This document shows positions 2,526 through 60,248 of a DNA stretch of 64,000 nt, piece by piece. Every line of letters begins with the position of its first letter. The stretch's first letter is position 1. The notes under the pieces are model-generated. The model saw only the letters and a program-made list of their open reading frames with translations. It did no database searches and had not been told where the DNA came from. The translations under genes and the position numbers were made by a program. The DNA is taken from the NCBI RefSeq assembly GCF_030013205.1, contig NZ_CP122648.1. One strand, 5' to 3'. Source of the stretch: Escherichia coli. Its GTDB lineage: Bacteria > Pseudomonadota > Gammaproteobacteria > Enterobacterales > Enterobacteriaceae.

Positions 2526-3995
2526 TTAATGGCTTTCGGGCGTCGCAATCATTCGTTTCAGCCACGGCACCATCAGCAGCATCACCACCGCAACGCCCAG
2601 CGTAACCAGGCCAATCTTACCAAACACGTTGGTATAGACGGGCAACGTCTCAAGTGGATCGGTAATGTTGTCTGGTACTGCGGTAAATGTTGCCACATAG
2701 CCGCCCAGCAAGAACGCGGCAGCCTGTGTCAGGAACCACATCCCGAGAATAAAGCCCATCAAATGCTGCGGCACCAGGGCAGCAATCATCGCCAGGCCAA
2801 GGGCGCTAATAAACAGTTCACCTAAGCTCTGGAATAAGTACACCAGCACGATAAACCATGGCGATGTCAGTCCTTGTGCATCAGCAAACCACATTCCCGC
2901 AGCGGCGGCTGTAAGAAAGCCCAGCGAGCACATAAACATGCCGAGAGTAAATTTCATCGGCATCGAGAGGTCTTTGCCTTTGTTACCCAGATGCGTGTAA
3001 ATGCCTGCCAGTATTGGGCTGGCGAGTACCACCCAGAACGGGTTAAGCGCCTGGAAGCTGACAGGGTTGATGGAAAAGCCGAGAATTTCATGATGCACGT
3101 TGTTGATGGCAAAGAAGTTCAGCGACGTTGGCATCTGGGCGTAGAGAATGTAAAACACCACCGCTTCGAGCATCAGGACAAAGGCGACAAACATTTTATT
3201 GCGCCCGGTTTTATCCAGCTTGAATGCCTGACGAAAGAAAATGATGGTGACGACGATGGAGAGAACAATCAGCACCAGATTGGCGACTTCTACGTTGTGC
3301 ATCAGCCATGCACAGACGAAGATCATCACCACGCTGCCAAGTAACACGTACAACAGTTTGCTGAAGCTCATCGGCCGGAAGTCGGGTTCAGAACCAATGT
3401 CTTTTACCATTCCGCGACAGGCGATGTAAACCAATAGCGCGATAATTAATCCCGCACCGCACAGGTTGTAGGTGACTGAATAGCCGAATCTATCAGCGAT
3501 CACAGGGGCCAGCGATAACGCTATCAACGAGCCGATGTTGATCGACATATAGAACAGGGTAAATGCGCCATCAAGCCGCGGATCTTTCGGCGGATAGCAC
3601 TTCGAAAGCAAGCTGGCTGGGTTAGCTTTAAACAGGCCGTTACCGACAGCGATAGTCCCCAGGGCGATGAAAATCAGGTCAGGCTTAAGTAGCGACAGGC
3701 CGGTCATGAAGTAGCCAATCGCCAGCACAAGTGCTCCGAGGACAATGGTGCGTTTGGTCCCCAGCAGGTGGTCGCCGACATAGCCGCCAATGGAAATGAG
3801 GCCATAGACCAGCGCAGCAAAAGCACCAAAAGTGACAAAAGCCTGTTCTTGCGAGAATCCAAGCTGCTTAACGAAGAAAACCGCCAGTACGCCCTGCACG
3901 CCGTAGTAGCCGAATCGCTCCCATAACTCGACAAAAAAGATCATGAAAAATGGGCGAGGTTGCTGCAGCATCCCCATGGGTGTTGTTGTATTCAT
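2526..3995 (-). CDS. dtpB: dipeptide/tripeptide:H+ permease (POT family)
   Basis: 489-aa ORF, strongly hydrophobic multi-TM protein, full-length match to DtpB/YhiP as recalled. Confidence 0.92.
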
Positions 3996-57891: not shown

Positions 57892-58962
57892 ATGGCAGGA
57901 CTGAAATTACAGGCAGTAACCAAAAGCTGGGATGGCAAAACCCAGGTCATTAAACCGCTGACCCTTGATGTGGCGGATGGCGAATTTATCGTGATGGTCG
58001 GGCCGTCTGGCTGCGGGAAATCGACGTTATTGCGAATGGTGGCCGGACTGGAGCGGGTAACGACGGGCGATATCTGGATCGACCGCAAGCGTGTCACCGA
58101 AATGGAGCCGAAAGATCGCGGGATTGCGATGGTGTTCCAGAACTACGCGCTCTATCCGCATATGAGCGTAGAGGAGAACATGGCGTGGGGGCTGAAAATT
58201 CGCGGCATGGGCAAGCAACAAATTGCCGAACGTGTTAAAGAAGCGGCGCGCATTCTGGAGCTGGACGGCCTGCTTAAGCGCCGCCCGCGTGAGCTATCTG
58301 GCGGTCAGCGTCAGCGTGTGGCGATGGGGCGTGCGATTGTGCGTGAGCCGGCAGTGTTCCTGTTTGATGAGCCGCTCTCTAACCTCGATGCCAAGTTGCG
58401 CGTACAGATGCGTCTTGAACTGCAACAGCTGCACCGTCGCCTGAAAACGACTTCACTCTACGTTACTCACGATCAGGTTGAGGCGATGACGCTCGCCCAG
58501 CGAGTAATGGTGATGAACGGCGGCGTTGCCGAACAGATTGGCACGCCAGTTGAAGTCTACGAAAAGCCCGCCAGCCTGTTTGTGGCGAGTTTTATTGGCA
58601 GTCCGGCGATGAATCTGCTGACAGGCCGCGTGAATAATGAAGGCACGCATTTTGAACTGGACGGCGGTATCGTGCTACCGCTAAACGGTGGCTACCGTCA
58701 GTATGCCGGGCGTAAAATGACTCTCGGCATTCGCCCGGAACATATTGCGCTAAGCTCGCAGGCAGAAGGCGGCGTACCGCTGGTGATGGACACGCTGGAG
58801 ATCCTCGGCGCAGATAACCTGGCGCACGGACGCTGGGGCGAACAGAAGCTGGTGGTGCGACTGGCGCATCAGGAGCGCCCGACGGCAGGCAGCACGCTGT
58901 GGCTGCATCTGCCGGAAAATCAGCTGCATCTTTTTGATGGTGAAACAGGACAACGAGTATGA
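57892..58962 (+). CDS. ugpC: glycerol-3-phosphate ABC ATPase
   Basis: 356-codon frame [11 protein letters not shown]... with Walker [10 protein letters not shown]. Confidence 0.93.
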
Positions 58963-59702
58963 GTAACTGGCCTTATCCCCGCATCGTCGCTCATCGTGGC
59001 GGCGGTAAGCTGGCCCCGGAGAACACCCTGGCAGCAATCGACGTCGGGGCAAAATACGGTCATAAGATGATCGAATTTGACGCGAAGTTATCGAAAGATG
59101 GCGAGATCTTCCTGCTCCATGACGACAATCTTGAACGCACCAGCAACGGCTGGGGCGTCGCGGGCGATCTGAACTGGCAGGATTTACTGCGCGTGGATGC
59201 AGGCAGTTGGTACAGCAAAGCGTTTAAAGGTGAGCCGCTACCGTTGCTTTCGCAGGTGGCGGAACGCTGTCGCGAACACGGGATGATGGCGAATATCGAA
59301 ATCAAACCCACCACTGGCACCGGGCCATTAACGGGCAAAATGGTGGCGCTGGCGGCACGCGAACTGTGGGCCGGAATGACGCCGCCGCTGCTGTCATCGT
59401 TTGAGATTGATGCTTTAGAAGCCGCGCAACAAGCAGTACCAGAACTGCCGCGCGGTTTATTGCTTGATGAGTGGCGCGACGACTGGCGAGAACTGACCGC
59501 GCGGCTGGGCTGCGTCTCTATTCATCTCAATCATAAGTTGCTCGATAAAGCGCGAGTGATGCAGTTGAAAGACGCCGGATTACGGATTCTGGTTTATACC
59601 GTCAATAAACCCCAGCGCGCGGCAGAGTTGCTGCGCTGGGGCGTGGATTGCATCTGTACCGATGCGATTGATGTGATTGGTCCGAACTTTACGGCCCAAT
59701 AG
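58959..59702 (+). CDS. ugpQ: glycerophosphodiester phosphodiesterase
   Basis: 247-aa ORF matching UgpQ as recalled. Confidence 0.93.
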
Positions 59703-60129
59703 TTTTCAACGGTATATCAGGCTGCGGCGTGCCGGGCTGATTCAGCATGTCGCCGTTTCTCCTCTCCGGCAACATATGCTGCTGATTCAACGAACTATCC
59801 GGATTACGGTTGCTGTTTAACATCCCGCCATTGGTGTTGGGCAGCATTTGCTGCCGGGCGGGATTTCGCTCCCCCGGCTGTGACTGCAACACCCGCTGAG
59901 AATTATTGTTTATCTGGTTTTCTAAATGCTGTTGTTGCAGCTGCGTTTGCGTTTTCAGTTGCTGATTCAGCATCCCTTTTTGCTGGATTTGCTGCGTTTG
60001 CATTTGGGTTTGCATCCGCTGCTGGCTGGGGATCTGATATCCCGGCTGGTTGGGGTTGTTCAGAGTATTAATGGGCTGTGCAAAGCCGACAAACGGCAGG
60101 AGTGCCGTAAGAATCAGAAGTCGTTTCAT
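59689..60129 (-). CDS. yhhA: Q-rich secreted protein (DUF2756)
   Basis: 146-aa ORF with signal peptide and Gln/Asn-rich low-complexity repeats; 3' end overlaps ugpQ by 14 nt. Confidence 0.85.
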
Positions 60130-60248
60130 CGCGTATCCTCCTCTGAAGATATCCTTTAAGTTTACTCGCTTCCCGGCAAAACGATGATTAATTCAGAGTT
60201 ATATACCAGGCTTAGCTGGGGTTGCCCCTTAATCTCTGGAGAATAACG

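Follow-up and report, generated by a model that had tools for sequence, protein, structure and literature searches.

Convergent ugpQ and yhhA of Escherichia coli share their last 14 nucleotides in an ordinary tail-to-tail overlap, with a candidate yhhA terminator hairpin inside ugpQ

Bidirectional terminators between convergent genes were reportedly described by Ju et al. in 2019 by means of SEnd-seq. Collision-driven termination of convergent pairs has likewise been documented in E. coli (bioRxiv 10.1101/2022.10.23.513370). At the level of the genes themselves, short convergent overlaps made up 3,035 of the 42,055 overlaps between well-characterised genes found in 338 genomes, and the loss or shift of a stop codon was given as their origin (PMC2478687). 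At the level of transcripts, the ExcludonFinder work (NAR 2025, PMC12288877) counted as excludons those neighbours whose transcripts, as delimited by RNA-seq, overlapped in 50% or more of 58 MG1655 transcriptomes. Its Table 1 lists 165 convergent excludons of MG1655, the pair yhhA-ugpQ being one of them, and these authors reported that in 146 of the 165 a predicted terminator lies inside the transcription unit of the neighbour and that excludon pairs display higher synteny. The double-stranded RNA that such overlaps might form was studied by p19 capture, and, in the parts of that study used here, 3' overlaps generally gave a signal far below that of 5' overlaps (PMC7373196).

The locus considered here lies in a stretch of 64,000 nt from E. 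coli (contig NZ_CP122648.1), referred to as the window, and the surrounding region corresponds to ugp-yhhA-ggt of E. coli. Its relevant features are the following:

58959..59702, + strand: ugpQ coding sequence (CDS), glycerophosphodiester phosphodiesterase of 247 aa, final gene of the ugpBAECQ operon, TAG stop at 59700-59702 (ORF list, Pfam, RefSeq)
59689..60129, - strand: yhhA CDS, DUF2756 family, 146 aa, Q/N-rich, TAA stop at 59691-59689 (ORF list, Pfam, RefSeq)
59689..59702, both strands: overlap TTACGGCCCAATAG, 14 nt, with the stops of both genes within it (ORF list and sequence)

Both ORFs are genuine protein-coding genes: residues 12-238 of UgpQ match Pfam GDPD (2.4e-55), residues 1-105 of YhhA match Pfam DUF2756 (1.1e-60), and the N-terminus of YhhA carries a hydrophobic leader that resembles a signal peptide by eye. 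Read on the + strand, the 14 shared nucleotides give the UgpQ ending (F)TAQ*; read on the - strand, they give the YhhA ending (T)IGP*. The same overlap is found in the RefSeq annotation of a 100%-identical strain and in that of K-12 MG1655 (yhhA 3586943..3587383, ugpQ 3587370..3588113). Of 5426 complete E. coli genomes, 5424 contained the region, and a 36-nt junction probe was identical in 5373 of the 5426 and matched at 95% or more in 41 others, so that the 14-nt overlap is fixed in E. coli. As short convergent overlaps are common, the question of whether it exceeds chance hardly applies to the 14 nt themselves. At its other end, ugpQ overlaps ugpC by 4 nt (ATGA, 58959..58962), which leaves it squeezed on either side. 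A co-directional 4-nt ATGA overlap is the usual arrangement and is associated with translational coupling.

The first-pass annotation of the window had stated that the 3' ends of both genes share these 14 nt, adding that the idea would fall if one stop lay elsewhere owing to a mis-called frame. The ORF list, Pfam, RefSeq and the 5373 identical junctions bear the sharing out, and in neither of the two ORFs, both verified by their domains, does the frame meet an earlier stop. The notion that a stop was mis-called, the overlap being an artefact, could draw on the DUF2756 match ending at residue 105 of YhhA and on the variable length of the C-terminal part of this protein across genera (92-172 aa). 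However, the choice of start codon has no bearing on the position of the stop, the C-terminal sequence PLKTIGP* of YhhA is conserved in Escherichia, Citrobacter, Cedecea and Buttiauxella, and the same 14-nt geometry occurs in Escherichia whittamii, E. albertii, Escherichia sp. E1V33 and two Buttiauxella species. The Pfam domains, the conserved C-terminus and the identical junctions effectively refute a mis-called stop, which was rejected as exceedingly improbable. Because the stop codons overlap, each mRNA extends into the neighbouring gene, as had also been claimed, in agreement with the listing of the pair as a convergent excludon of MG1655 (PMC12288877).

The history of the junction was approached by a scan for UgpQ with one genome per species, which yielded 80 loci of Enterobacteriaceae, or 81 together with the window. 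In every one of the 80 loci a yhhA homologue is convergent with, and immediately adjacent to, ugpQ. At one extreme the stops are separated by a 96-nt gap, at the other the genes overlap by 20 nt. An overlap of 4-20 nt is found in 63 of the 81 loci, and the states are distributed as follows:

4-nt overlap, usually TTAA: 36 loci, widespread and the commonest state
7-11-nt overlap: 4 loci, various
14-nt overlap: 8 rows from 7 distinct genomes (locus L001 duplicates the window), Escherichia species and two Buttiauxella
17-nt overlap: 6 loci, Enterobacter, Citrobacter and related genera
20-nt overlap: 10 loci, Enterobacter, Lelliottia, Citrobacter and related genera
gap of 5-96 nt: 18 loci, Klebsiella, Raoultella and others

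A 10-nt indel separates the 14-nt overlap of E. coli from the 4-nt TTAA overlap of Citrobacter youngae, and the YhhA C-terminus PLKTIGP* is common to Escherichia, Citrobacter, Cedecea and Buttiauxella izardii. Among the species with a gap, Pluralibacter, Raoultella, K. oxytoca and K. indica carry a small intergenic palindrome between the stops, whose copies are short and perfect or near-perfect (TGGCCGCCGCCCGGCGGCCA in Pluralibacter), and B. agrestis and Cedecea carry a REP-like element at this place; the inserts lie at about 3240-3300 in loci L018, L026, L027 and L046, at 3241-3338 in L075 and at 3244-3290 in L080. We read these sequence comparisons as suggesting a junction under pressure for compactness, at which the exact length of the overlap may drift neutrally. 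The 14-nt state would have arisen from the 10-nt indel or from stop-codon drift in poorly constrained C-terminal tails, and it would have no function of its own.

Several observations were made alongside. In Cedecea, GCTCAATAA and TTAAGGCCCAATCG border the insert, which looks like the outcome of a 14-nt overlap in an ancestor being split and duplicated. YhhA, encoded at 59692..60129 of the window, varies between 92 and 172 aa among Enterobacteriaceae owing to indels in the Q/N-rich middle of the protein and in its C-terminal part; the E. albertii protein has 122 aa, and the E. coli strain NZ_CP028758 aligns in two pieces, with only 66% of the query covered. A 430-kb contig labelled 'Chryseobacterium sp. 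18061' (CACSKA010000004.1, locus L062) contains an enterobacterial ugpQ-yhhA locus with a UgpQ 86% identical to that of E. coli, and this assembly is probably mislabelled or contaminated.

As there is no intergenic spacer, the 3'-end signals of each gene would sit in the coding sequence of its neighbour. The strongest candidate for such a signal was found on the yhhA side:

59601..59642, - strand: candidate yhhA intrinsic terminator or 3'-end hairpin, stem GCCCCAGCGC/GCGCUGGGGU (59608..59642), then UUUAUUGAC, within ugpQ codons 215-228

It begins 47 nt past the yhhA stop, in RNA that is untranslated on the yhhA strand, and consists of a GC-rich stem of 10 bp directly followed by UUUAUU. The U-tract immediately 3' of the stem (UUUAUUGA, 5 U in 8) is the same in the window and in K-12, where the hairpin lies at 3587430..3587464. 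The predicted folding energy is -24 to -24.5 kcal/mol (z -3.9 to -4.2), and none of 200 shuffled sequences was as stable. It had been asserted that the overlap leaves no room for independent terminators, which is too strong in view of this candidate inside ugpQ, and also in view of the 146 out of 165 convergent excludons of E. coli with overlapping predicted terminators (PMC12288877); the assertion holds only for intergenic terminators.

Across the 81 species, 88.8% of the stem cells are paired, and a core of 8 bp is kept in about 85-100% of the species. Covariation is marginal (3 pairs with double changes), and most of the pairing is forced by the conserved peptide PQR..LRWG. Three stem sites that are synonymously free are unusually conserved, namely P218 (CCC in 72 of 81), R226 (CGC in 69 of 74) and Q219 (CAG in 68 of 74). 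The usual conserved Pro codon in ugpQ is CCG, whereas P218 is the rare CCC, retained exactly opposite the invariant Trp codon in the stem. The codons of each of the 81 species were then resampled synonymously from its own ugpQ pool. The hairpin on the yhhA strand exceeded its recodings with a mean z of -1.81 (p<=0.05 in 49 of 81; median dG -24.7 versus -16.2), and the fold on the ugpQ strand did so with a mean z of -1.33, reaching significance in 28 of 81. In a scan of the entire gene in 16 species, the codon-215 segment was the top outlier of ugpQ (mean z -2.32, below -1.65 in 15 of the 16). A second region of the - strand, at codons 49-71 (59103..59171), was also more stable than its recodings, with a mean z of about -1.7 in 9-11 of the 16 species.

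The excess stability showed some relationship with the geometry of the junction, overlapping-gene species averaging a z of -2.08 versus -0.88 for gap species (hand-summed and uncorrected for phylogeny). It was lost, with z near 0, in the K. oxytoca group, K. indica and Raoultella, which carry the intergenic palindrome, and a strong hairpin was kept despite the gap in K. pneumoniae, Cedecea and Buttiauxella agrestis. Hairpin and overlap are thus imperfectly linked, and phylogeny confounds the association.

Several features make the element an atypical terminator. The main stem arms are separated by 14 nt, partly closed by a 3-bp inner helix, a distance above the 3-8 nt of the short-loop criterion; a consensus scan for promoters and terminators over 58800..60400 found no terminator at the junction and missed this large-loop hairpin. 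The U-rich tail requires Lys217, and most species with the 4-nt overlap lack such a tail. A relaxed terminator scan gave 52 hits in the 64-kb window, equivalent to a chance of about 4% of finding one within 100 nt of a given stop, a specificity so low that resemblance to a terminator counts for little by itself. In the Term-seq tables published by Adams et al. (PMC7815308), a 3' end internal to yhhA is the sole entry and none falls near MG1655 3587465-3587472, although yhhA was weakly expressed under the conditions used, perhaps too weakly for such an end to show; the hairpin has no 3' end in the TERMITe supplements either, and an Rfam search at a permissive E-value returned only chance-level matches, far below gathering scores. 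The + strand of the same region folds equally well (-25.4 kcal/mol), and the extra stability might benefit the ugpQ mRNA rather than that of yhhA, the z on the + strand being negative too. The element does not qualify as a bidirectional terminator, since the ugpQ stop comes 58-94 nt after it and the + strand continues with CGUGGAUUG, without a U-tract. Judged from its sequence, the hairpin is a fairly well-supported candidate terminator of yhhA.

On the ugpQ side and at the overlap itself, two further structures were considered:

59724..59767 (hairpin proper 59724..59753), + strand: weak candidate ugpQ termination hairpin inside yhhA, GCGGCGUGC...GCAUGUCGC, then CGUUUCUCCUCUCC / CGUUUCUCC
59676..59700, both strands: palindrome ATTGG-N15-CCAAT across the overlap, dG -8.3/-8.2 kcal/mol, z -1.6/-2.0

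The former has a dG of -16 to -17 kcal/mol, no better than shuffled sequences (z -0.7 and +0.17), and compared with synonymous recodings it gave a mean z of -1.5 in 16 species and of -1.0, not significant, in the window. A composition test for Rho utilisation sites revealed a single, modest stretch with C in excess of G, 53-130 nt past the ugpQ stop. There is no convincing intrinsic terminator for ugpQ, and the candidate is weak. The palindrome folds equally on either strand, is weak and lies in RNA that is translated on both, and it is probably incidental.

With regard to promoters, the consensus scan found no sigma-70 promoter anywhere in 58800..60400. Genomic SELEX located a sigma-28 holoenzyme peak inside ugpQ, at about 59229 of the window, and an RpoS holoenzyme peak in the divergent spacer between ggt and yhhA, at 60130..60249 of the window (PMC5493296). 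A reproducible Term-seq 3' end, seen in two growth conditions, maps 51 nt inside the yhhA ORF (MG1655 3586994 on the + strand, about 60078 on the - strand of the window) and is not Rho-dependent according to the bicyclomycin ratio (PMC7815308). About 25 nt before it, a small hairpin (ACGGCA-CUCC-UGCCGU) is located in the signal-peptide codons of yhhA. This 3' end may represent premature termination or processing of yhhA.

Published expression data bear on the consequences of the overlap. On entry of E. coli O157 Sakai into stationary phase, yhhA rose by a log2 of 2.48 and ugpQ, ugpC and ugpE by a log2 of 2.1 to 2.6, all in the same cluster as rpoS (PMC2241611). In the parts of the RNase III work used here, p19-captured double-stranded RNA from ugpQ rose 4.3-fold, from 8.5 RPM in exponential phase to 36.2 RPM in stationary phase (Table S2), which still leaves ugpQ short of the 100 RPM that the top 13.5% of genes attain and far from the strong clusters; the UgpQ protein was 1.32-fold higher in the rnc-14 mutant, which was not significant (adjusted p 0.65, 0.12 and 0.18), and no yhhA entry was found in those of its supplementary tables that were covered (PMC7373196). 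The ugpQ reads are consistent with duplex formation when ugpQ and yhhA are both on. The first-pass annotation had raised antisense interference as a possibility, which these data hardly favour, as the two genes rise together.

All these observations can be integrated by assuming that the locus is a compact tail-to-tail junction of two unrelated genes that has no spacer in Escherichia, with the 3'-end signals of each located in the coding sequence of the other, and this is the explanation that we regard as probable. According to it, the ribosome would leave at the yhhA stop, and transcription of yhhA would most likely end at, or its RNA be trimmed back to, the hairpin 47-88 nt downstream, which would be written into ugpQ codons 217-228 and kept by the choice of synonymous codons. 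About 100 nt of each yhhA mRNA would in that case lie antisense to the ugpQ 3' end. In the opposite direction, ugpQ transcription would probably read some way into yhhA and, by analogy with the collision model, stop by means of the weak hairpin, of Rho or of collision with converging polymerases. The sense/antisense overlap is, on present evidence, real and of little regulatory consequence.

It might instead be proposed that the pair is a functional convergent excludon, the overlap having been selected so that transcription of one gene represses the other through polymerase collision or through RNase III cleavage of the duplex, in which case the Pho-regulated ugp operon would be coupled to the stationary-phase gene yhhA. 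The pair belongs to the published MG1655 excludome, its convergent adjacency in all 81 species agrees with the higher synteny of excludon pairs (PMC12288877), ugpQ double-stranded RNA increases 4.3-fold in stationary phase (in the parts of PMC7373196 used here), and, with the embedded candidate terminator, any transcription of yhhA would necessarily produce about 100 nt of antisense. However, the co-induction of both genes in one expression cluster on entry into stationary phase (PMC2241611) speaks against mutual repression, as do the modest 36 RPM of ugpQ at a type of overlap that is a poor source of double-stranded RNA and a UgpQ level that did not change significantly in rnc-14 (the last two within the same parts of PMC7373196). 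Neither is the length of the overlap conserved, a gap being present in 18 of the 81 loci, some of them with an intergenic palindrome. Moreover, we know of no functional link between UgpQ and YhhA. Selection for repression was thus considered unlikely.

The same low standing was given to the possibility that the junction has no dedicated element at all, both transcripts ending by Rho or by head-on collision and the hairpin in ugpQ being a by-product of the conserved peptide or serving the ugpQ mRNA or DNA. Such a view can point to the many stem positions fixed by amino acids and the weak covariation, to a + strand fold that is equally stable and also exceeds its recodings, to the unconserved U-tract, to the Term-seq data lacking a 3' end at the hairpin (PMC7815308), and to the documented termination of convergent pairs by collision (bioRxiv 10.1101/2022.10.23.513370). 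Yet the excess stability is larger, and significant in more species, on the yhhA strand, the hairpin segment is the strongest outlier within ugpQ, and the rare Pro codon persists at the very site that pairs with the invariant Trp codon; in addition, the hairpin sits 60 nt before the ugpQ stop, where it cannot shield a full-length ugpQ mRNA. At the other extreme, codons 218-228 could form a selected dual-use element, specifying peptide on one strand and a terminator or 3' stabiliser of yhhA on the other, subject to synonymous selection across Enterobacteriaceae that is relaxed where an intergenic palindrome is present, with the roughly 100 nt of yhhA antisense made in stationary phase tuning UgpQ. 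Taken as a whole, this proposal is speculative and was judged quite improbable.

The ugpQ-yhhA overlap is an ordinary one, already annotated and catalogued, and the main idea of the first-pass annotation coincides with a published listing. It matters little by itself, as it is present in every E. coli annotation and the pair figures in a published list of 165. The mild addition is the likely terminator hairpin of yhhA within the ugpQ coding sequence, which would offer a worked example of a terminator-like hairpin kept in the coding sequence of a neighbour by codon choice and would bear on synonymous-site constraint and on genome recoding or refactoring. The comparative series is also of use, as it shows one junction drifting among a gap with a palindrome, a 4-nt overlap and overlaps of 14-20 nt. 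Finally, the locus calls for caution, because listing as an excludon does not amount to mutual repression, and the expression and RNase III data for yhhA-ugpQ do not indicate repression.

How, then, does this locus compare with the systems described at the outset? The candidate yhhA hairpin shares with intrinsic terminators a GC-rich stem and a U-rich run shortly after a stop, and differs from them in being embedded in the coding sequence of another gene, in its large loop region of 14 nt and in an interrupted U-tract that is absent in many species. As in the bidirectional terminators and the collision model (bioRxiv 10.1101/2022.10.23.513370), there is a convergent pair with overlapping transcripts and a hairpin in the overlap region, but here the strong hairpin precedes the ugpQ stop and cannot terminate ugpQ, so that it would be at most a one-way element. 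Like other convergent excludons, for instance mscL-arfA (PMC10070815), yhhA-ugpQ has transcripts overlapping at their 3' ends and a terminator, here a candidate one, within the unit of the neighbour; it differs from them in its data, which consist of co-induction and a UgpQ level not significantly changed in rnc-14, and in that the overlap takes in coding sequence as well as UTRs. The closest relatives are the short convergent overlapping pairs of prokaryotes, which, like ugpQ and yhhA, are bona fide genes on opposite strands with 3'-terminal bases and stops in common, conserved among close relatives and variable among distant ones (PMC2478687). From these, ugpQ/yhhA differs in nothing essential, its 14 nt simply being longer than the 4-nt form that is commonest in the other Enterobacteriaceae compared here.
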